From a virus (Duplodnaviria; Heunggongvirae; Uroviricota; Caudoviricetes), in the IMG/VR virus record IMGVR_UViG_3300043411_001076: 64,000 nt of DNA; one strand, given 5' to 3'. The position numbers and the translations under genes are program-made. The notes under the pieces were generated by a model, which saw only the letters and a list, made by a program, of their open reading frames with translations, was not told the DNA's origin and did not search any database. Numbering within the stretch: position 1 is the stretch's first letter; each line of letters begins with the position of its first letter. Positions 3,055 to 58,202 of this stretch are shown here, one piece after another.

Positions 3055-3083
3055 TAGCCAGAGGTCAAAATTAATATTCAATA

Positions 3084-3113
3084 AAGGGATGGTTTTCATC
3101 CCTTTTATTTTTT
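3084..3113 (+). terminator. intrinsic terminator
   Basis: AAGGGATG-gttttc-CATCCCTT hairpin followed by TTTTATTTTTT. Confidence 0.65.
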
Positions 3114-7194: not shown

Positions 7195-7225
7195 TTAACC
7201 GCAAAAAACTGAAAACAACTCGATA

Positions 7226-7264
7226 AAAGCTCTATTATTTTTATAATAGGGCTTTTATCTTTTT
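7226..7264 (+). terminator. intrinsic terminator
   Basis: AGCTCTATTAT-tttt-ATAATAGGGCT hairpin followed by TTTATCTTTTT. Confidence 0.6.
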
Positions 7265-7274
7265 AGAGGGTATT

Positions 7275-10282: not shown

Positions 10283-10291
10283 CCATATGTA

Positions 10292-10316
10292 GGGGACACT
10301 GTCCCCTAATTTATTT
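10292..10316 (+). terminator. hairpin terminator (weak T-run)
   Basis: GGGGACAC-TGTCCCC perfect hairpin then TAATTTATTT. Confidence 0.45.
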
Positions 10317-10414
10317 GGAGTTAACTCCGTAGTCTATTTATAGTGTGTATTACTATACAATACAATTACATGTATCATACTTCCACGACTAACTCACCTA
10401 GAAGAGTAGCATTT

Positions 10415-14541: not shown

Positions 14542-14564
14542 CCTTACATGTAGGTCAACAACAA

Positions 14565-14603
14565 AAGGCAGAGGACGTAAAAATTCTCTGCCTTTTTATT
14601 TTT
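14565..14603 (+). terminator. intrinsic terminator
   Basis: AAGGCAGAG...CTCTGCCTT hairpin then TTTTTATTTTT. Confidence 0.65.
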
Positions 14604-14614
14604 AAGGAACGAAA

Positions 14615-23088: not shown

Positions 23089-23120
23089 ATTAATTTTCCA
23101 TAGTTAATATAAAATAAAAA

Positions 23121-23149
23121 GGGGAAGTATCTACTTCCCCTTTTTATTT
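23121..23149. terminator. bidirectional intrinsic terminator
   Basis: AAAAA-GGGGAAGTATCTACTTCCCC-TTTTTATTT. Confidence 0.65.
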
Positions 23150-23163
23150 GTTAATTATAAATT

Positions 23164-26100
23164 TTACTGTTCGCATCCACCAGCAGAGCAGGCAGCTTCA
23201 CCTTGAAATGAAGTTCCATCTTCTAATTCAAGCATAAATTCATAGTTCACAGGCTTGAAATTAGAAACAATATTATTCCATAGGAATTCATCTTTTTCAG
23301 TAACTACTTCTTCTCTTGGAGCAAAGGCATAATCTTTATCTCCTGAGTAGGGAAGCATCGAGATACCAGAAAACTGGAACCTTCTATCCCATAAGAAATG
23401 TTTTACATCTTCCCATTCATCAGGTTTAACAACGACGGTATTAGACACATTATTCTTAAGTCCTGGATTATCAGTATCTCTGGCAGTTCCGTAAGCAATC
23501 CAATTAGTCTGTGTCAAGAATACCCTCTCCAAAAATTCTAAAGCCGTCATATCATTTCTTGTTACTGCTCCTTCAGGAGCTTCTACACAGAACGTAATAA
23601 CATCTTCTGTGTCATTAACCTTTTCACACATATGGGGATTTATACTCTTGAAAAATTGATAAACTGCTTCACCTGGAGACATACGAACACGTCTAAAATA
23701 TCTCTTAGCATGATGCGGATGTATTCCACTACCCACACAACCTAGAGCTAAGGACGCTGTACCTGAAGGTTTTACTGCGGTAAGTCTAGCAGCAGAATTA
23801 ATACCTAGTAGGGCAGAAAACTTTTCATTTACTTCTTTGCATAATAAGGCTGCCCTTCTCTGAAGATCGGCATTAAAAGCAATAGCAGGGTTATCTACCA
23901 TTCCCGTCATAGAAACGCCCAACAAGGCATCTCTACGAGCAAGTAACTCTGTCACTGGTCCTAAATATGGAAAATCTGTATATCCAGCTTGGCAAGTACC
24001 AATGATTGTAGCTGCCGTCACCGATTCTAAAAATTCTTCTTCTGTCTTACATGCTGCAACATTTACTTCTGATAAATTACAAAACGACCAACCACATAAG
24101 ATATCTCCAATATTGACATTAATATTTCTTTCTTTTAAGAAGATTTGGGCTTTAGAATCAACAACATAGAAAGGATTGAATTGGACCTCGCTACAATTTC
24201 CACTAACAATACCATTAGCGATTACGCTATTCGTTTCGGGCTGAGTGAGACAGTACACATCTGTTCTCTCATCCATTTTCGTAATAGAAACTATTTTTGT
24301 AATGTGTCTTTCGGGCTTATTACAATCTCTACCTCGTTCGTCTAAAACCTGTGTAAGTCTTCTTCCTTTTGCCCCAGGTAATTTAATTGTATTTTCAAAA
24401 GTTATACAATTAGGACGGCTAATAATAAGTTCGTGCATAGGTTGGCATAGATAATCTTTATGGCCACCCTTTCCATCAGGTAACTTACGATAAGCTTCTT
24501 CAGTTCTCCTATACACCTTAGAAACAATTCCAAAACCCATCAAAAGATTTTGAATATCTTCCAATAAATCTCGATTAACTTGTGAAATTCTTAATGAAAC
24601 CGTTTTCTTTTTATCCTTTCCAGAACACAAGACAGTTCCATCAGATACAATCATTCCTGCAATATAGCCAGCCACCATTTCTTTGGTTCCCTTCCAAACA
24701 ACTTCTGGAACCATTTTTTTCAGATCACTGGTAGACTGTCCCTGTAAAATATTCTCAACTACTTTATAGAAATTTGCACCCCCTATTCTCTTTTTTGTTC
24801 CATGATCTTGACTATGCCACCCCAAATCATTTTTATTATTTAATTTGAATAGTTGTCTCTGATCATTAACAATCTTATGTAGTAAATCAGATAATTCGAA
24901 GTCCGACTCCCAAATGTCTATAAACGCACTTTTACCGCTGAAACATCCATCTCCTGTAAGCATTCCGAGAATAAATCCTTGATCCCAGCTTCCCTCCCTC
25001 CCAAATCTTACAGAACCAGAGTTTAACAAAAGAGTATCCCCAACAGATAACTCATGCGTTTCCTTTCTTCCATTAAAAGTAGGGAATTTATGGTTTTCTG
25101 TTACTTTTAATCTCTGCCCATGTTCTGTCTGTATCTCAAATACTTCTGCGCTCTTTTTGGTAAGGAACGCAGAAGTTGCCTTTCTTAGTTTATTTCCCTT
25201 TAATTCTGGAAATATCAGATCCCCTTTACCAACTCTGGTATCTGTATTAACACATAAGGGTATCCCATTTTTCTCCATATCTCCGATTTTCATCCATCCT
25301 TTACTTGTAGAGATCCTAGTATCAGGATGGAAACACGGATTTGTGCCGTAATCTAGACTATCTACAAATAAGAACCCAGGCTCTCCATATTCTTTTGTAG
25401 ATCTAAATAGTCTGCTATACTGTTCAAAAGTTGCTTGACTTCTTAATAGTACTGCCGAATTATTAGCGCGAGATCTCCAAGGATGTGTTTTCCACCATTC
25501 TCCAGTTTTAGCATTAATCATTTCCTCATCATCAATAGAAAATAAGGAAATCGAAGCACTGCGACGGACACCCCCAGCTAATACAGCTTCGCTAGCTAAA
25601 CATACGATGTCATGGCATTCAATAGGTCTTAAATGCCTGCCTTGAACTGAATCTAGTACTTTCCTAATACGACGAATTGCCAATTTAAGAGGGATATGTC
25701 CTGGTGCTCTACCGCCTGATGTAGACAGGTAAGATCCTTTACCTCTTATTTGACTATAAGAAAATTCGGTATAGTAGTCTCCTTCGACATAAGACATAAT
25801 AAGTGCATGCAATGCATCTGCCCATCCTTGGATCGTATCTTCTACGATATGATGTCTTACTTTGTCTTTATTAATATGCTTTAAAGGAGCTAATTGCGCG
25901 ACATGGTGCTTCTGTACTGAAAACCCTGTACCGCATCCACAGAGAAGTAAGAAAAAGGCTTCTTTAAAGAAAGAAAAACGATTGCATGGGCTAAAGCTAC
26001 AATTATAAATTCGTTCATTGATCGCTTTTACGCCCTTACCACCAAACTGCATAGATCGCATACTTGGAAGGGAAACACGATCTCTAACTTTATTAAAAGC

Positions 26101-26607
26101 CCATCTGATATCATTTTCAATTTGAGGAAACTTTTCAATGTGCATATTCTGTACACGGTCTATACTTTCCCCATGTACTTCGCGTCTAAATACTTCCTTC
26201 TTATACTGAGAATATTTAGCAACGTGAATGAAATCTGCTATTACTTCTTTAGGTAATCCTGGAAGCCTTTGATTTCTAAGTTCACTTCTCTTATTTCTAT
26301 AAAGAATATAAGACTTGGCTGCTTGGGGTAGATTAGCGCCAACTAAGATGTTTTCGACAATATCTTGAATAAGTTCTACATCAACGAAATCTTTATTTTC
26401 GGTGTCATTTGTCTTAGACAGTAAGATATACTGTGAAACTGCCTTACAAACATTATTTGTTAAATCTTCTAAATTATAAGTTTTAACATCATCACAAGAT
26501 AGTAAGCATTTATAAATAGCGTCTTTTATTTTTCCCTTTTCAAACGAGACAAGAGAACCATTTCGCTTTTTCACTAAAAAATTGGTATCGTAAATCGACA
26601 TGGACAA
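23164..26607 (-). CDS. ribonucleotide reductase catalytic subunit (ATP-cone; class II-like NPC[S]E active-site motif) interrupted by an intein
   Basis: N-terminal ATP-cone-like region; extein junction GTNP|CSEVQF matches RNR active-site NPCGE; C-terminal redox pair C-x4-C (AACSAGGCEQ); 380-aa Hint+LAGLIDADG insertion. Confidence 0.85.
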   Translation of the reverse strand: MSMSIYDTNFLVKKRNGSLVSFEKGKIKDAIYKCLLSCDDVKTYNLEDLTNNVCKAVSQYILLSKTNDTENKDFVDVELIQDIVENILVGANLPQAAKSYILYRNKRSELRNQRLPGLPKEVIADFIHVAKYSQYKKEVFRREVHGESIDRVQNMHIEKFPQIENDIRWAFNKVRDRVSLPSMRSMQFGGKGVKAINERIYNCSFSPCNRFSFFKEAFFLLLCGCGTGFSVQKHHVAQLAPLKHINKDKVRHHIVEDTIQGWADALHALIMSYVEGDYYTEFSYSQIRGKGSYLSTSGGRAPGHIPLKLAIRRIRKVLDSVQGRHLRPIECHDIVCLASEAVLAGGVRRSASISLFSIDDEEMINAKTGEWWKTHPWRSRANNSAVLLRSQATFEQYSRLFRSTKEYGEPGFLFVDSLDYGTNPCFHPDTRISTSKGWMKIGDMEKNGIPLCVNTDTRVGKGDLIFPELKGNKLRKATSAFLTKKSAEVFEIQTEHGQRLKVTENHKFPTFNGRKETHELSVGDTLLLNSGSVRFGREGSWDQGFILGMLTGDGCFSGKSAFIDIWESDFELSDLLHKIVNDQRQLFKLNNKNDLGWHSQDHGTKKRIGGANFYKVVENILQGQSTSDLKKMVPEVVWKGTKEMVAGYIAGMIVSDGTVLCSGKDKKKTVSLRISQVNRDLLEDIQNLLMGFGIVSKVYRRTEEAYRKLPDGKGGHKDYLCQPMHELIISRPNCITFENTIKLPGAKGRRLTQVLDERGRDCNKPERHITKIVSITKMDERTDVYCLTQPETNSVIANGIVSGNCSEVQFNPFYVVDSKAQIFLKERNINVNIGDILCGWSFCNLSEVNVAACKTEEEFLESVTAATIIGTCQAGYTDFPYLGPVTELLARRDALLGVSMTGMVDNPAIAFNADLQRRAALLCKEVNEKFSALLGINSAARLTAVKPSGTASLALGCVGSGIHPHHAKRYFRRVRMSPGEAVYQFFKSINPHMCEKVNDTEDVITFCVEAPEGAVTRNDMTALEFLERVFLTQTNWIAYGTARDTDNPGLKNNVSNTVVVKPDEWEDVKHFLWDRRFQFSGISMLPYSGDKDYAFAPREEVVTEKDEFLWNNIVSNFKPVNYEFMLELEDGTSFQGEAACSAGGCEQ
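24196..25335 (-). mobile_element. intein (Hint domain + LAGLIDADG homing endonuclease) inserted at RNR catalytic Cys
   Basis: Starts CFHPDTRISTSKGW (block A), LAGLIDADG motifs ILGMLTGDGCF and IAGMIVSDGTV, ends VYCLTQPETNSVIANGIVSGN followed by +1 Cys (blocks F/G); aa 425-804 of host protein. Confidence 0.75.
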
Positions 26608-26755
26608 CTCCGAAAAAAATAAACAACATCTATTTATTCACCATGTCCTTCGAAAAGGTCACTGGTAAATAGATAGAAACTATAAAGGTAAAAACTACAG
26701 GATAACCTATTGACTTGTTCTATAGGGCCGCAAAAGAATTTAACAATTTTTTAAA

Positions 26756-28883: not shown

Positions 28884-28943
28884 AAAATAATAAAGCCTCT
28901 ACTAAGAGGCTCTATAGATAAATATACATATTTTATGAAAAGA

Positions 28944-29786
28944 TTATTTCAGACTCAAAAACTCATTAATTTTAAGCTTTAATCCGTCTATTGCCTTATG
29001 TAAAGAGGTACTATTGATACCTAGCTCCTCTGCTATTTCTTTTTTCTTCTTACCAGAAGACAGTAGTTCAACAATCGAAACCACAGAATCCCCCATACCT
29101 CTTTTTGTTTTAATCCACTTTTTAAAATCACTCATAATCATTTCTTCATTTGAATAATCCGAATCTTCTGTTGAGTTCTCTGTATAGTTTTTAGGTATCT
29201 CTGCTTTTTCCTTCATACCTCTTTTGATTTCTTTCTTTCTAAAATTTTTATACACACTACCAGCTACCATGTGAACATAACTTCCAAAACTTCCTCTACT
29301 AGGATTCCATGCCCCCTTTCCCTTGTTTCTAACAAGTAATCCCTTAAATACCTCTTGTAATAAGTCTTCTACCGATAAACCCTCTGACACTGCCCTTTTA
29401 GCATAATAAGCGTAAAATATCTTTTCTATATCTTTTTTCTTCTTTACTATATCTATCCCTGTATTAGATGGAGAGGTGACGCTCTCATCATCTACTACTA
29501 ATTCAGAATTATCTGCGTTACACGCCGCACATGTCTCTTTATAAGTTTTAATATTTTCTAAAATTCTATATATTGTCATGTCTGTTTTCGTATTTACCCT
29601 AAAATAGTTAAAAAATGTAGTGGCGGCCTTACTTTTCGACTGTTTCAGGAAATCTTTTACTGAATTATAGACAAACTCCCCAATCTTAAGCTCATACCTT
29701 TTTCTTTTTCCTTCCCCTTTTTCCTTAATCTGTACAGGTAATGAACCATCTTCGTATCTTGAATATAAAATATAAGTACTTTCCAT
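28944..29786 (-). CDS. sigma-70 family (ECF-like) RNA polymerase sigma factor with N-terminal extension
   Basis: Region 2: DLLQEVFKGLL...WNPSRGSFGSYVHMVAGSVYKNFRKK (cf. ECF D[LV]xQExF ... FDPSRGSFxxWL); region 4 HTH KKEIAEELGINSTSLHKAIDGLKLKINEFL. Confidence 0.7.
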   Translation of the reverse strand: MESTYILYSRYEDGSLPVQIKEKGEGKRKRYELKIGEFVYNSVKDFLKQSKSKAATTFFNYFRVNTKTDMTIYRILENIKTYKETCAACNADNSELVVDDESVTSPSNTGIDIVKKKKDIEKIFYAYYAKRAVSEGLSVEDLLQEVFKGLLVRNKGKGAWNPSRGSFGSYVHMVAGSVYKNFRKKEIKRGMKEKAEIPKNYTENSTEDSDYSNEEMIMSDFKKWIKTKRGMGDSVVSIVELLSSGKKKKEIAEELGINSTSLHKAIDGLKLKINEFLSLK

Positions 29787-29792
29787 AGCATA

Positions 29793-29830
29793 CCTCTAAA
29801 ATAAAAAAGACCCTATATAGGGTCTTTTAC
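29793..29830 (-). terminator. intrinsic terminator-like hairpin in the sigma-gene leader
   Basis: AGACCCTATATAGGGTCT palindrome; on - strand followed by TTTTTTATTTT, then SD AGAGG and the ATG at 29786. Confidence 0.55.
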
Positions 29831-29906
29831 TTAAATCTGATAACTGAGATATTCTTCATAAAACACTTAAAATAGTAGAGTACGTCAAGGGCATTAATAT
29901 ACCCTG

Positions 29907-29940
29907 ATTACTATAATAGTGTTTTTTATCAGTATGTCAA
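29907..29940 (-). promoter_or_regulatory. candidate sigma-70-type promoter (TTGACA-N16-TATTAT) upstream of sigma factor gene
   Basis: On - strand TTGACATACTGATAAAAAACACTATTATAG; two further TTGAC motifs nearby. Confidence 0.3.
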
Positions 29941-29951
29941 GATAGAGCGGG

Positions 29952-30581
29952 TCAATTTTCTTTATTTATAGCGTCTCTAAGTACTCTTAGTGCTAAGGCA
30001 TTGACATCTTTAGGTATAGAAGGAATAGTATAGTCTGGAAGTTTCTTAATATCTTTACTATTCTTTGGAGGACGGCCTGCTTTTCTTTTTAGCTGACCGT
30101 TATGTTTCAAATATTCGTTTACTCTGTTATCTACGAGATCGTTTACGTCATCATCGGACATGATGGGAGTAGATGTTACTTCCTTTAACTTTTCTCTTAG
30201 ATCTTTCAATTTACCTTTTGAACGTACAATGATATCGTCTTCACTATCTTCATCATAATCCTCTATAGTCGGGTCTTCTATAACAAGACCTGACTTTTCA
30301 TCTACAACGTCATCTTCTAATATATTAAAAGCCTCTGCAAAGAAAGATGGGCCTCTGTTATTAAATCTCTCAACCCAAGATAAAAGAGTTTGAAGACTAA
30401 TTCCCATGTCCTTATGTATAGTATTCATATAAGTATCAATAGATAAAAGATATACTGCAAATGCTTTTCTCTGCCCATCTTTTGTTGGGAAGTTTAAAGC
30501 TATATGAAATAATCCTTTTCTAGAGATACCCCATTTTTTATAATGTACTGCTAATTGCTTCTGTAATATTTTTTTAGGCAC
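29952..30581 (-). CDS. hypothetical protein with C-terminal AT-hook-like motif (RKAGRPPK)
   Basis: 209-aa ORF; acidic middle; KRKAGRPPKNSK. Confidence 0.45.
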   Translation of the reverse strand: MPKKILQKQLAVHYKKWGISRKGLFHIALNFPTKDGQRKAFAVYLLSIDTYMNTIHKDMGISLQTLLSWVERFNNRGPSFFAEAFNILEDDVVDEKSGLVIEDPTIEDYDEDSEDDIIVRSKGKLKDLREKLKEVTSTPIMSDDDVNDLVDNRVNEYLKHNGQLKRKAGRPPKNSKDIKKLPDYTIPSIPKDVNALALRVLRDAINKEN

Positions 30582-32402: not shown

Positions 32403-32470
32403 AAAAAGCCTCTATTAGGAAGAGAATGGACTCTCCTAATAGAGGCTTTTATAAAATTTTACGACATAGA

Positions 32471-34636
32471 TCAGCCAGCATTAAACTCTGTAACGAGTTT
32501 TTCAATGTCAGCTTTCAATAGAGTCTTCTTATCAAGAAGTTCTGTAAGTAATTTATCGAATAATGGACGATTATCAGCCAAAATCGTCTGGCAACGTTTT
32601 TGCTGTTCTTTTAGAATATTATCAATGTGAACATCAATTTTATTCGATAGTTCAGCACTTACACTAGGACGATCATCTTTGTCGTGAACATGACCGACAG
32701 GTGCTGTAATTGCTCTCAATGTAGCATCTGACATACCCAACCGTTCTACCATGAGTCTAGCGATATCAGTAGCTTTTTCGAGATCGTTCGCACAACCAGC
32801 CGAAAAATCACCATAAATTAGGAGTTCTGCTTCACGACCGCCAAATAGGATGCAAATGGTATCCAGGAATTGACCGCGTGTTTGAACGTATTTCTTATCA
32901 CCTGTCTCATGCAATACGTAACCAAGAGCACCTTCTTTATCAGAAGCAATGGTAATTTTTTCAATAGGTTCACTATTTGTAGTCTTTAGTCCAATGATAG
33001 CATGGCCTACTTCATGAACTGCAATTACCCTTTCTTCTTTCACACTCAACTTAATTTTTGTAGATGCCGATTTAGGCAAAGCAGCCATACAATTTTCTTC
33101 TGTAAGCAAAATTTCTTCGGCTTTAATGAACTTTCCCTTCTTTGCAGTTTCTTGAGAACGTCGAATGGATTCACGTTTCAATCCGCGTGCAATAGCGTTC
33201 AAGTGATCACCTGAAAACTTGAGATTGTTCTTAACGTCAGAGTATCCGCCTGTACGATCTACGAGAAACTTAATCAGTTCGTCAGACAGATTAAGATTGA
33301 ATTTTTTACGGTACAGATCAAGGATGATCTTTCTATCGTCTTCTTTTGGGTAAGGAATCTCAATCTGCAATTCAAAACGACCAGGACGTAACAGTGCAGC
33401 ATCGATACTTTCCACAAAGTTTGTGGTGGCTACGATAAATACAAGATCTTCCTTACGGAATCCGTCCATTTCTGTGAGTAGTTGGTTAACCATTGAGTGT
33501 TCAACACCGCTACCACCGTAAGTACCACGGTGAGTTGCAAAGCTATCAATTTCGTCAAACACGATAATTGACGGTGCCGATTTTCGTGCCTTCATAAATA
33601 CGTCACGAATGTTTTTCTCTGAATCACCAACCCACTTACTTTTTAGTTCTGGACCAGAAACAATAATGATTGTGGCATCCAATGCAGTGGCCATAGCCTT
33701 TGCAAAGAATGTTTTACCCGTACCTGGAGGTCCAGAGAAAATCATACCTTTTGGTATAATTTCTTCAATCTGCTTAACCTCATCTACAGAGGTTAGTGTC
33801 TCCTTATAATTAAGGAGTTCAAGAATTTCGTTTTTAATGCGTTTTTTTACTTCTGAGTACCCACCGATGTCATTATCCAAACTTACGTTTGGAAAATCTA
33901 CATCTGAGGTGATAGTCATATTACGAAGTTCTCGGTACAATGCATTTGTCTGAGACTCGTCATCTTTATTATAATCTAAACGATCATGAAAAGACTCAAG
34001 GACTTCACGTAGTCTAACAACGTTCATCCCAGAAACATATTTATACAATTTGAAAGGATTAAATTCTTTATGTCCAAATTTCTTGGCCTCTGTCTGAGTA
34101 ATTACACAAGGCAGAATATCACGTGTAATTCCAGAAATCGTTCTCTTAGCCGAGAATAGATGTTCAATAGGCTCTGGAATTTCCAAAGAAGGATCTTTAA
34201 ACATGACGATACGAACATCAGGATTATCGTAGACAGCAGCCATCAATTCTCTACTCGTATCTGTCATACCTGATTTAGAGGTAGTAACTGCAACGTCAAG
34301 GTGAGGAATAAACAAGCAGATATTAGATTCACCAGAGAAAATTCTCACAAGCGTTTGTGCCAACAAGTGTCGCATAATATTTCCACCACTTTCAGGATCT
34401 GGACCTGCAATGAGGTGGCTGGTAAATTTAAATGCTGTATTGTCTTTCAATGCTGTACGAATAAGTTTATACACATAAGTATAAAGTTGCTTCTCACATT
34501 CAATGAGAACGTTCATTCCCTTTACAATCTTATCAACGATCCATTCCAAATCTTCACGATATGCGATTTGTACAGCATTCAAATGTGTCAATTTTGCAGG
34601 CAGTGAACTGATCTGTGTCAAAGTCTTATCCGACAT
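32471..34636 (-). CDS. FtsH-like AAA+ ATPase / M41 zinc metalloprotease, no N-terminal TM region
   Basis: Walker A GPPGTGKT, Walker [37 protein letters not shown] (HEVGHAIIG), [33 protein letters not shown] matches the FtsH protease core; ORF-track start 34729 is TTG, ATG 34636 preceded by AAGAGAGAAAAGAAG. Confidence 0.8.
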
Positions 34637-34736
34637 CTTCTTTTCTCTCTTCTTTTCTTGTTTTTGATTAACACCCACAGACAGTCTCTGTGAGTTCTTA
34701 GTATAAAATAATTGATAATGAATGTGCAAATAAAAA

Positions 34737-36236: not shown

Positions 36237-37202
36237 TTATTCCAAATTTAATAAGTCAGTAATAGACTGCTTCTCGTTTTCTATCTTATTAGTTTCTTGT
36301 ATAGTATCCTGCTCTGGATCTGTAAATTCCAAAATAGGAATCTGCTTCATTTTGTGAAACATACGAGAGACAAACTTTCTCGCTCGTTCCACACTCTTAA
36401 AGATAGCAACTTTCGGATCTCTATTGTAATAAAAACTAAAAGAATCAAACTCCTCACCGATACCCCTTCCTACCTCTACCTCATAAATAATGTATGAGTC
36501 TCTAAAGTTAAAATCAATCAAGACATCCAAATCATCTCCGAAGGTAAAATCCATACCGTCAATTTCACAAGCATTCTCCTTAATATTGGAGAATTCTTTC
36601 ATAATCTTTCTAATATCAGAACAAGCACGTCTTGATAATAAGACTTTTGACATTGCATACGAAATCTGATGTAAAAAAGGTTCCCAATTATAGTCATGGG
36701 GAGGAGGAATAGTTAAATTTTCAGTATGGATTTTCTGACCTTCACTATAAAAATATAAAATTCCGTCCAAATATTCAGTGTTGCTCTGATCCGTAGAAAT
36801 AAATATTTCTATAGATACACGGATACTATCTGTTGTATTGAAATAAATAAAATGCTTCTCTTCCAAAGATTCAGTATATACTTTATATCCTGCTAAAGGC
36901 CGAAGTTTGGACTTTATTAGAGAAGACATCTTAAATAAATTAATGGATCTATTGGGAGAATTTGAGAATATAGACATATTAGCATCCCTATTATCCTTAT
37001 TAAATCTCATCTGATTTTTATTAGGACGCTCTATAGTAGTTTCGGATTTGTCTACGGTAGAGTAGCTATGGTTTTTATATTCTTTAATAGTCTTAGGAAA
37101 AGAATCTGCTTCAACTGTGTTAGGTAGCGTCTTTTGTGTCATTTTATTCATATTGGGCTTGACCATTATACTAATTCCTTTATACTGTTCTATACTAGAC
37201 AC
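36237..37202 (-). CDS. hypothetical protein
   Basis: 321-aa ORF; start uncertain (several in-frame Met near N-terminus). Confidence 0.5.
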   Translation of the reverse strand: MSSIEQYKGISIMVKPNMNKMTQKTLPNTVEADSFPKTIKEYKNHSYSTVDKSETTIERPNKNQMRFNKDNRDANMSIFSNSPNRSINLFKMSSLIKSKLRPLAGYKVYTESLEEKHFIYFNTTDSIRVSIEIFISTDQSNTEYLDGILYFYSEGQKIHTENLTIPPPHDYNWEPFLHQISYAMSKVLLSRRACSDIRKIMKEFSNIKENACEIDGMDFTFGDDLDVLIDFNFRDSYIIYEVEVGRGIGEEFDSFSFYYNRDPKVAIFKSVERARKFVSRMFHKMKQIPILEFTDPEQDTIQETNKIENEKQSITDLLNLE

Positions 37203-37222
37203 TCAAAAAGTGTCTACGGTTA

Positions 37223-37277
37223 ATCCTACCAAAACATCCCCAAAACTCCTTCCTTATTATCCTACCAAAACACCCTT
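37223..37277. repeat. two direct repeats ATCCTACCAAAACA(T/C)CC, 36 bp apart, in a divergent intergenic region
   Basis: C-rich repeats in an otherwise AT-rich intergenic region between divergent gene starts. Confidence 0.5.
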
Positions 37278-37299
37278 CCTAATCACCACCCCGAATAAA

Positions 37300-37331
37300 C
37301 CCTATCATGTGAATGGTAGGGTTTATTTTTA
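37300..37331. terminator. hairpin + T-run (terminator-like) inside the divergent region
   Basis: CCCTATCAT-gtga-ATGGTAGGG (one G-U pair) then TTTATTTTTAT. Confidence 0.45.
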
Positions 37332-37347
37332 TCTAATTGGAAAGAGT

Positions 37348-37626
37348 ATGGTATCAAAAGAAAAGAAGTGTAAAGTATCAAAAGAAGTGAAGAATGTATT
37401 CGCTAACGATCCAAAGAAATTGACAGTAGATGTAAAGATCATACTGTCAGAAGCTTATGCAAAAGAAGGGACTAAATGGATAAGAGAAACTTTCTTCAGA
37501 GAAGGAATCTCTATAGAGTCAGAAGATAAAGAAAATTTCTTCTTGGTTGCAAAGATACAGAAAAAACATATTGATCGACTAGACTACTCTATTTTTGTTA
37601 CGTTCGTGGACTTGCACAAAACTTAA
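37348..37626 (+). CDS. hypothetical K/E-rich small protein (short form; ORF track gives 37117 with TM + PT-rich N-terminus)
   Basis: GGAAAGAG upstream of ATG 37348; the long form would overlap the divergent gene start and contain the terminator-like hairpin. Confidence 0.3.
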   Translation: MVSKEKKCKVSKEVKNVFANDPKKLTVDVKIILSEAYAKEGTKWIRETFFREGISIESEDKENFFLVAKIQKKHIDRLDYSIFVTFVDLHKT

Positions 37627-37629
37627 ATA

Positions 37630-37929: not shown

Positions 37930-38023
37930 TTTTATATCCTTAAAAAATAAAAAGAAGAAGTAGAGTCTTAAATCGAAAACCCCACTTCTTCTTAATAGGT
38001 TATTCTACCCAGATTGTCAAAAT

Positions 38024-58111: not shown

Positions 58112-58125
58112 GGCCCCTCCAAATT

Positions 58126-58161
58126 AAAACAGCGCAAACGGTGGTATGCGCTGTTTTTTAT
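58126..58161. terminator. bidirectional intrinsic terminator
   Basis: AAAACAGCGCA-aacggtggtat-TGCGCTGTTTTTT. Confidence 0.6.
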
Positions 58162-58202
58162 AACAATTTTTTATGCTAATGGATAAAATAGATAAATTTA
58201 AC

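Follow-up and report, generated by a model that had tools for sequence, protein, structure and literature searches.

Predicted promoter, leader and intrinsic terminator conserved ahead of a divergent sigma-factor gene in probable phage DNA

Introduction

Sigma factors encoded by phages act as master switches for programmes of phage gene expression, and very little is known of their control in uncultivated large phages. Here we describe a sigma-factor gene in IMGVR_UViG_3300043411_001076, a stretch of 64,000 nucleotides (nt) assigned to the Caudoviricetes and referred to throughout, at its whole length, as the window. The gene and its leader are read on the minus strand, and the leader runs from a predicted host-type promoter to a predicted intrinsic terminator that lies directly before the ribosome-binding site (RBS). 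The design belongs to a known kind of control, premature termination in a 5' leader, and several described systems can be set beside it.

In the PR'-qut-tR' region of phage lambda, a constitutive promoter gives rise to a short terminated RNA, with the terminator placed before the next developmental stage. Promoter, short terminated RNA and terminator follow in the same predicted order at the present locus, but the gene downstream encodes a sigma factor and is not a late operon, and no Q-like protein or Q-binding element was identified. Attenuation of the Escherichia coli pyrBI type is ribosome-coupled and involves no run of regulatory codons: a ribosome close behind the polymerase blocks formation of the terminator hairpin. 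The sigma leader resembles this arrangement in that a short open reading frame (ORF) runs up to the terminator, and departs from it in that the ORF lacks a Shine-Dalgarno (SD) sequence, its translation is only putative and it has no known nucleotide-sensitive pause. We know of no leader terminator described for phage sigma genes that are expressed early from host-type promoters.

In Bacillus phage SPO1 the phage sigma factor gp28 is expressed early from a host-type promoter and redirects transcription (PMC13401047). The gene studied here likewise has a promoter of the host sigma-A/sigma-70 type ahead of it, but its product has an additional domain at the N-terminus and no more than a distant relationship to phage sigma factors of this kind. 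Premature-termination units in 5' untranslated regions (5' UTRs) have been mapped by ONT-cappable-seq in the giant Pseudomonas phages 201phi2-1 and phiKZ: start and terminator lie within 250 nt of each other upstream of a phage gene, 8 of the 11 small RNAs (sRNAs) of 201phi2-1 arise in this way, and one unit is conserved in position among relatives (PMC11512511). The succession of a start and then a terminator ahead of a phage gene is common to those units and to ours; there, however, the units were mapped experimentally in phages that use their own polymerases, whereas here the unit is read from sequence and has a host sigma-70-type promoter, and the part of the study available describes none for a sigma gene (PMC11512511). 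Finally, the PeSL cassettes of the T4-type phages RB49 and phi1 combine a strong sigma-70-like early promoter with a stem-loop of terminator grade and end in the SD sequence and ATG of the next gene, the stem-loop lying downstream of the -10 element in one subclass; it is read as a terminator or attenuator of upstream transcription, and the cassettes are present in multiple copies related in sequence and linked to the shuffling of ORFan genes (PMC2839356). The sigma spacer, too, holds an early promoter together with a stem-loop in one intergenic cassette that ends at an SD sequence and ATG (PMC2839356), but it also includes a leader of ~80-125 nt plus a second terminator, and the gene that follows it is a conserved regulatory one. 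The idea that it is itself a repeated cassette of the PeSL type was rejected, as a blastn-short search of the spacer against the window finds only the spacer itself.

Results

A predicted promoter and terminator bound the sigma leader

The spacer between the upstream stop codon and the sigma ATG measures 165 nt and contains, in this order, a promoter, a leader, a terminator and the SD sequence (Table 1). Scored against the sigma-70 consensus, TTGACA-N16-TATTAT (29940-29913) matches at 11 of 12 positions and is the sole such match on either strand of the window. It is intergenic, in DNA of which only 6% is intergenic, and it is oriented toward the sigma gene; by simple arithmetic, ~0.12 perfect occurrences of TTGACA-N16-TATWAT are expected in 128 kilobases (kb) and ~0.004 in 4 kb of intergenic DNA. 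Looser sigma-70-like matches occur in the window at chance frequency, so it is by the quality of its match and its placement that this one stands out. The element is thus a predicted sigma-70/sigma-A-type promoter, and in this the initial annotation, which had picked it out, proves right: it is present, it is the best in 64 kb and it is kept in relatives (see below).

A transcript from this promoter would have to meet a terminator ahead of the RBS. The hairpin, AAAAGACCCU-AUAU-AGGGUCUUUU as RNA and AAAAGACCCT-ATAT-AGGGTCTTTT followed by TTATTTT as DNA, spans 29828..29805, is built on a GACCC/GGGUC stem core and is followed by UUAUUUU to 29798; the U-tract as a whole reads UUUUUU-A-UUUU (29808..29798), and its end adjoins the start of the SD sequence at 29797. 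This terminator segment folds with a free energy (dG) of -12.8 kcal/mol (z = -4.1), and none of 200 shuffled sequences was as stable. The full predicted leader gives -23.6 kcal/mol (z = -2.2), and its centroid structure shows only two terminal hairpins. By its stem and U-tract, the segment 29828..29798 is a predicted intrinsic terminator. A terminator-like hairpin and U-run just before AGAGG-ATG had been noted previously; they are real and correctly located, and the order of promoter and then hairpin is confirmed. Given the predicted start, the 5' UTR would be 119 nt long and the terminated RNA ~105-108 nt, with ~60 nt of A/T-rich leader between hairpin 1 and the terminator.

Some further features of the spacer were considered. 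A second ATG (29789-29791, minus strand) stands 5 nt upstream of the sigma start and 1 nt past the SD sequence and opens an out-of-frame ORF of 44 amino acids (aa), which is not conserved in the closest relative, L001, and is probably irrelevant. A promoter downstream of or inside the terminator was rejected, with ~11 nt left before the SD sequence and no conserved -35 element to fit the U-run TATTTT (judged by eye). Three copies of TTGAC (at 29955, 29940 and 29888) make up the only such cluster in the window and had been noted initially; of these the -35 element alone is kept, the first and third copies being absent in L001, and the copy at 29955 overlaps, and arises from, the upstream stop codon.

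Table 1. Features of the sigma locus and positions of other spacers in the window with a terminator before the next start codon
Feature	Coordinates	Strand	Remarks
Upstream syntenic 209-aa gene	29952..30581	-	weak helix-turn-helix (HTH) and AT-hook-like motif; context only
TGA stop of the upstream 209-aa gene	29954..29952	-	
-35 element, TTGACA	29940..29935	-	motif scan
-10 element, TATTAT	29918..29913	-	16-nt A-rich spacer after -35
Predicted transcription start	near 29905	-	inferred from -10 position
Hairpin 1, AGGGUA-UAUUAA-UGCCCU	29905..29888	-	fold; at predicted 5' end of leader
Leader ORF, MKNISVIRFK then stop	29827..29859	-	no SD; TAA overlaps first bases of terminator stem
Predicted intrinsic terminator (attenuator)	29828..29798	-	10-bp stem, 4-nt loop, U6-A-U4
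SD of sigma gene, AGAGG	29797..29793	-	directly after U-run; 6 nt to ATG at 29786
Sigma-factor gene	28944..29786	-	280 aa; ORF list
Second predicted intrinsic terminator, directly 3' of sigma gene	28890..28915	-	scanner
Terminator spacers, plus strand	1666-1722, 3055-3111, 7195-7274, 10283-10342, 14542-14614	+	
Terminator spacers, minus strand	23089-23163, 26608-26755, 28884-28943, 32403-32470, 37930-38023, 58112-58202	-	
Example hairpin	7222..7259		then TTTTTAGAGGG..ATG

Promoter and terminator are conserved islands

Sigma proteins close to that of the window are rare, with only six in 5.8 billion clusters. The contigs of the relatives share the gene order FtsH-like protease, 391-aa protein, NrdG, 209-aa HTH protein and sigma factor. 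The leader comparison in relatives that the initial annotation had proposed was run on five lineages, whose sigma proteins are 86% (L001), 58% (L006/L007/L012), 57% (L008), 51% (L002) and 49% (L003/4/5) identical in amino acids to that of the window. In 5 of 5 a hairpin with a U-rich tail lies 18-29 nt before the sigma ATG. Its stem is AAAAGACCC...GGGTCTTTT in L001, as in the window, AAAGGCTCC-GTAA-GGGGCTTTT in L002, AGATCCTA...TAGGGTCT in L006/L007/L012, AGACTCT-ATTA-AGGGTCT in L008 and GCATAGTAGT-ATTC-ACTACTGTGC in L003/4/5, three unrelated stem sequences in all, and a G-rich SD sequence (GGGG or AGAGG) then follows at the same position. Within the group that shares the GACCC/GGGTC core, the two substitutions each turn C into U on the 5' arm and leave a G-U pair in place. 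Between L002 and the window two positions are changed on both sides (A-U to G-C and U-A to C-G), as read by hand; a formal covariation count was dropped because MAFFT had set L002 one column out of structural register.

The promoter is kept in three lineages as TTGAC(A/T), in each case separated by exactly 16 nt from a hexamer of -10 type: L001 has the -10 element TAGTAT, L002 has TTGACA-16-CATAAT (11 of 12 positions) and L006/L012 have TTGACT-16-TAAAAC. Against L001, the promoter is identical at 27 of 28 positions, the hairpin with its U-run at 34 of 34 (0.85^34 is ~0.004) and the leader ORF at 31 of 33, against 45% identity from the stop codon to the -35 element, 70% from the -10 element to the leader ORF and 83-89% in the flanking genes. 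Promoter and terminator therefore emerge as conserved islands, because the rest of the spacer falls to 45-70%. The terminator 3' of the sigma gene also keeps its position in the window, L001 and L002. Such conservation makes the predicted arrangement more than chance.

An additional hairpin is seen in some relatives. In L002 (3798-3866), L006 (71-135) and L012 (4140-4205), a 14-16-bp hairpin with a T-run stands immediately after the -10 element, giving in L002 and L006 the order promoter, immediate terminator 1, ~100 nt and terminator 2, a geometry that closely matches one PeSL subclass (PMC2839356). Because a start 7 nt past the -10 element falls inside its 5' arm, this first terminator could not fully form in transcripts born at the promoter, and it could instead stop transcripts that arrive from upstream. 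With the upstream operon supplied with a terminator of its own, the RBS-proximal terminator of L002 and L006 would therefore act only on the sigma leader.

Hairpin 1 occupies the corresponding place at the predicted 5' end of the window's leader. Its GGGTA...TACCC stem is kept in L001 and is expanded in L002 and L006 to the 14-16-bp hairpin with T-run just described. The 5' arm is formed by GGGTATAWT, an element that the window shares with L001 and L002 and that in all three lies just after the -10 element; how far apart the two are varies among lineages (11 nt vs 3 nt), and the L002 copy overlaps the predicted start. An exact 10-mer, GGGTATATTA, is common to the window (29895-29904, minus strand) and L002 (3826-3835), in spacers that are otherwise unalignable. 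At about +5..+10, the window (TATATT, 29901..29896) and L001 have a -10-like hexamer, TATATT or TATAAT, that may recall the sigma-dependent pause elements used by lambda Q; the L002 hexamer is displaced, and L006 has none. GGGTATAWTA was also tried as a genome-wide promoter motif and rejected, being not enriched (11 matches vs 12 expected).

Short leader ORFs run up to the hairpin

In each lineage that has a leader, a short ORF begins at the ATG closest ahead of the terminator and has its stop codon at the hairpin foot. The stop lies at -1 nt from the hairpin foot in the window, at -1 nt in L001 (MKNNSVISFK, 10 codons), at -8 nt in L002 (13 codons) and at -2 nt in L006 (18 codons); genuine upstream genes stop 7-78 nt ahead of their own terminators. 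The frame also survives in L012, a variant of L006, although three substitutions, only one of them synonymous, have occurred in it. None of the leader ORFs MKNISVIRFK, MSFISDKVNFNSR and MQSPIHSELTASFSELSI contains the run of regulatory codons that marks a trp/his-type attenuator, and nascent-RNA folds of the leader show no stable, mutually exclusive antiterminator hairpin of the kind that such attenuators use. One feature of pyrBI-type control, a leader ORF that reaches the terminator, is found in all four leaders.

The gene encodes a divergent sigma factor

The initial annotation had called sigma regions 2 and 4 clear, which holds at the family level and less so for the single protein. Alone, the protein matches Pfam Sigma70_r2 with 22.9 bits (E 7.5e-5), below the cutoff of 24, and Pfam gives no match to region 4, the C-terminus returning generic HTH matches alone. 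PHROG 1740, annotated 'RNA polymerase sigma factor', matches it with E 7e-6. Among 1.84 billion representative proteins, 602 relatives were recovered, and a profile built from 72 of these matches PDB entry 3mzy, a Fusobacterium sigma-H, from region 2 through the region-4 HTH with E 1.4e-9; a profile of 6 sequences had no significant match in PDB. Sigma70_r2 is matched by 25 of the 72 members, Sigma70_ECF by 9 and Sigma70_r4_2 by 3. An AlphaFold (AF2) model of the protein reaches a predicted local distance difference test (pLDDT) score of 85.6, and Foldseek ranks 1-12 are all structures of sigma-H, sigma-E or other extracytoplasmic function (ECF) sigma factors, including complexes with anti-sigma factors; sigma-4 domains are also recovered, and the sigma-2 and sigma-4 core comprises ~170 aa. 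The choice of start codon is backed by an N-terminus (M...Y.LYSRYEDG) kept in six orthologues. The predicted product of 28944..29786 is thus a divergent sigma-H/ECF-like (group 3/4) sigma factor, an assignment that is solid at the family level.

Ahead of the core, residues 1-110 (29457-29786) form an extra N-terminal domain of four beta-strands and helices, modelled with pLDDT >90, and in about half of the top-scoring family members the match to the profile begins in this region. No candidate motif for a promoter of the sigma factor itself was enriched in the intergenic DNA of the window, and 6-mer enrichment in upstream spacers returned words from terminator tails alone and no candidate phage-sigma promoter motif.

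Genomic setting

The sequence is likely of phage origin. PHROG matches in the window include a DNA polymerase and several helicases, a DnaB-like one among them, and the neighbourhood of the sigma gene encodes a ribonucleotide reductase that contains an intein, the radical-SAM activase of this enzyme and an FtsH-like protease, which supports placing the sigma gene in a phage-like replication module. No tRNAs were found and no structural genes recognised in the window. The DNA of the region had no match among 50,697 phage records, and tblastn of the sigma protein gave one 25%-identity match, in a 485-kb uncultured phage, as the sole similarity to deposited phages.

The protease, an FtsH-like AAA+/M41 protein (32471-34729, minus strand), belongs to the same co-directional array and is syntenic in all relatives. 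The reductase (23164-26607, minus strand) includes an ATP-cone as well as an intein that carries a LAGLIDADG domain; its L001 orthologue (7197 onward) is longer, at 1550 aa, with repeated intein-splicing and LAGLIDADG matches, which suggests that it holds more than one intein. Further along, a 427-nt gap between minus-strand genes (37203-37629) contains recurrent copies of a TTTTGGTAGGAT motif as well as G-rich stretches close to its 3' end, and is overlapped by a plus-strand ORF of 169 aa (37117..37626).

Discussion

The reading that we favour, with a probability of roughly 0.5, is that promoter, leader and terminator form one unit that limits or gates sigma synthesis by premature termination. 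Host RNA polymerase carrying the housekeeping sigma factor would start near 29905, assuming that the promoter is used, would make a leader of ~105-108 nt and would then meet the terminator just ahead of the SD sequence, such that only polymerases that read through would yield sigma mRNA. Sigma output would stay well below promoter strength or be gated in time, and the second terminator after the gene would make the sigma gene an insulated single-gene unit. The leading candidate for what sets the readthrough fraction is the short leader ORF that ends at the hairpin foot, and a constitutive partial leak is an equally possible source of readthrough. A ribosome positioned on the stop codon of that ORF would mask the 5' arm and keep the hairpin from forming. 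On this basis a ribosome-coupled attenuator might gate the developmental sigma factor of the phage, keeping it off unless a ribosome closely follows the polymerase, though we consider this specific version doubtful. In a variant of it, readthrough of the unit would await the appearance of a phage antiterminator not yet recognised.

A number of observations weigh against a dedicated control unit. At least 11 of the 20 co-directional spacers of 57 nt or more in the window have a stable hairpin and T-rich tail before the next start codon (Table 1), and a hairpin with U-run before the RBS is therefore not special to the sigma gene. These hairpins end 1-34 nt before the next start, their tails often read T4-6-A-T4-6 and most have no visible promoter after them; a promoter plus ~80 nt of leader upstream of the terminator is a combination that only the sigma spacer has. 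Among the relatives, the L003 lineage has the terminator without promoter or leader (13 nt from stop codon to terminator), and in the absence of a sense promoter its sigma factor must therefore come by readthrough from the upstream operon. In two distant members of the family (27-28% identity), TTGAC-type promoters occur with long leaders and with no leader terminator, which would make the device specific to the present clade, and terminator 2 scores borderline in L002, L006 and L008. Nor did a regulator come to light: Rfam 15 has no match at gathering score in the window (the best sub-threshold score in the region is 27 bits vs 90), nascent-RNA folds give no stable alternative pairing that uses the 5' arm of the terminator, and no recognisable antiterminator is encoded in the neighbouring genes (six proteins examined). 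The regulated readthrough proposed initially thus stands as far as the layout goes, which fits, and lacks an antiterminator fold, an Rfam family or a recognisable antiterminator protein. As for the leader ORFs, no SD sequence lies within 15 nt of any leader ATG, the sequence upstream being A/U-rich only, the peptides are unrelated between lineages, and real genes here have strong SD sequences. In their favour, 7-10% of dinucleotide shuffles of each leader contain an ORF of this kind, and the product over three independent lineages is 6.5e-4, for a criterion that was set post hoc, after the data had been seen.

Other explanations account for parts of the same evidence. The transcript may be an end in itself, a stand-alone trans-acting small RNA of ~108 nt, with the sigma mRNA a by-product of leakage or a product of the upstream operon. 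Promoter-to-terminator distances of ~105-160 nt in three lineages would suit this, as would the finding that the 3' two-thirds of the leader are more conserved than the flanking genes in L001, and sRNAs derived from 5' UTRs by premature termination are reported for phiKZ-like giant phages (PMC11512511). We nevertheless hold it to be rather unlikely, given that the leaders are unalignable between lineages except for the hairpins and the 10-mer, that no Rfam family matches, that the centroid fold shows just the two terminal hairpins and that L003 keeps the terminator without any such RNA. The L003 spacer, which is simply stop codon, 13 nt, terminator and sigma gene, speaks for yet another account, in which the hairpin is an ordinary intercistronic terminator of the FtsH...NrdG-HTH operon, the promoter is unused or weak and sigma is made by unregulated leak. 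That at least 11 spacers have a terminator 1-34 nt before the next start, and that sigma-70-like matches overall are at chance frequency in the window, point the same way. Against it stand a promoter that is the best in 64 kb, lies within the 6% of intergenic DNA and is kept at 27 of 28 positions amid 45-70% identity, its -35 element and spacing recurring in three lineages, and the separate terminator that L002 and L006 already possess for their upstream operon; we therefore regard this account as unlikely.

Readthrough might also be brought about by processive antitermination that depends on a factor or on RNA, of the lambda PR'-qut-tR'/Q or HK022 put type, the modifier being either a phage protein that acts at a sigma-dependent pause induced by TATAWT (+5..+10) or a 5' stem-loop RNA. 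The series of promoter, ~100-nt RNA, terminator and next-stage regulator parallels lambda PR'-6S RNA-tR', GGGTATAWT follows the -10 element in the window, L001 and L002, including the exact 10-mer, and long co-directional arrays with many terminators would benefit from general antitermination. Yet the position of TATAWT relative to the -10 element varies (11 vs 3 nt), the element is absent in L006, and no Q/N-like protein is found among six neighbours, the rest of the window not having been scanned against Pfam; the mechanism is on balance quite improbable. The upstream 209-aa protein was considered as an antiterminator and rejected, with weak transposase-type HTH matches and two database homologues only. 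A role in RNA processing or stability, with the hairpin serving as a nuclease site or protective stem-loop and not as a terminator, is the hardest to credit. Hairpins at transcript ends do stabilise RNA, and hairpin 1 sits at the predicted 5' end, but all features of a terminator are present, the U6-A-U4 tail is kept in all lineages and the 10-bp stem falls short of the length that an RNase III-type site needs. The suggestion of processing in the initial annotation accordingly finds no support, the stem being of terminator type and judged too short for a site of any double-strand-specific nuclease.

Two other leaders in the window deserve mention. In the spacer 32403-32470 (minus strand), only 1 nt separates the ATG of the 391-aa gene from the end of a 47-nt hairpin with 20 pairs (dG -29 kcal/mol). 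The single SD-like AGAGG is part of this hairpin's 3' arm, so that translation of the 391-aa gene could begin only if the hairpin opened. The leader of the reductase gene (26608-26755, minus strand; 148 nt) has a 20-bp hairpin and T-run 21 nt before the start and, ahead of the hairpin, a weak promoter-like TTGTTA-16-TATAGA; it has no Rfam match and is near-identical in L001 (7043-7196), and the reductase leader of L002 (7116-7244) has a T-run before the RBS and, by eye, an apparent hairpin. It may be a second unit of promoter, leader and terminator. The terminators that precede start codons across the window suggest that readthrough or antitermination is widespread in this genome.

Should sigma synthesis prove to need readthrough, as in the premature-termination unit that we favour, an element of ~110 nt would set the timing or the dose of the switch, and if the ribosome-coupled version is true, the switch to the phage sigma factor would be tied to the translational capacity of the host. 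Promoter, leader and terminator are in any case compact parts that could be reused as an attenuated expression cassette. More broadly, terminators placed directly before RBSs suggest that readthrough or antitermination is a general strategy in this group of phages.

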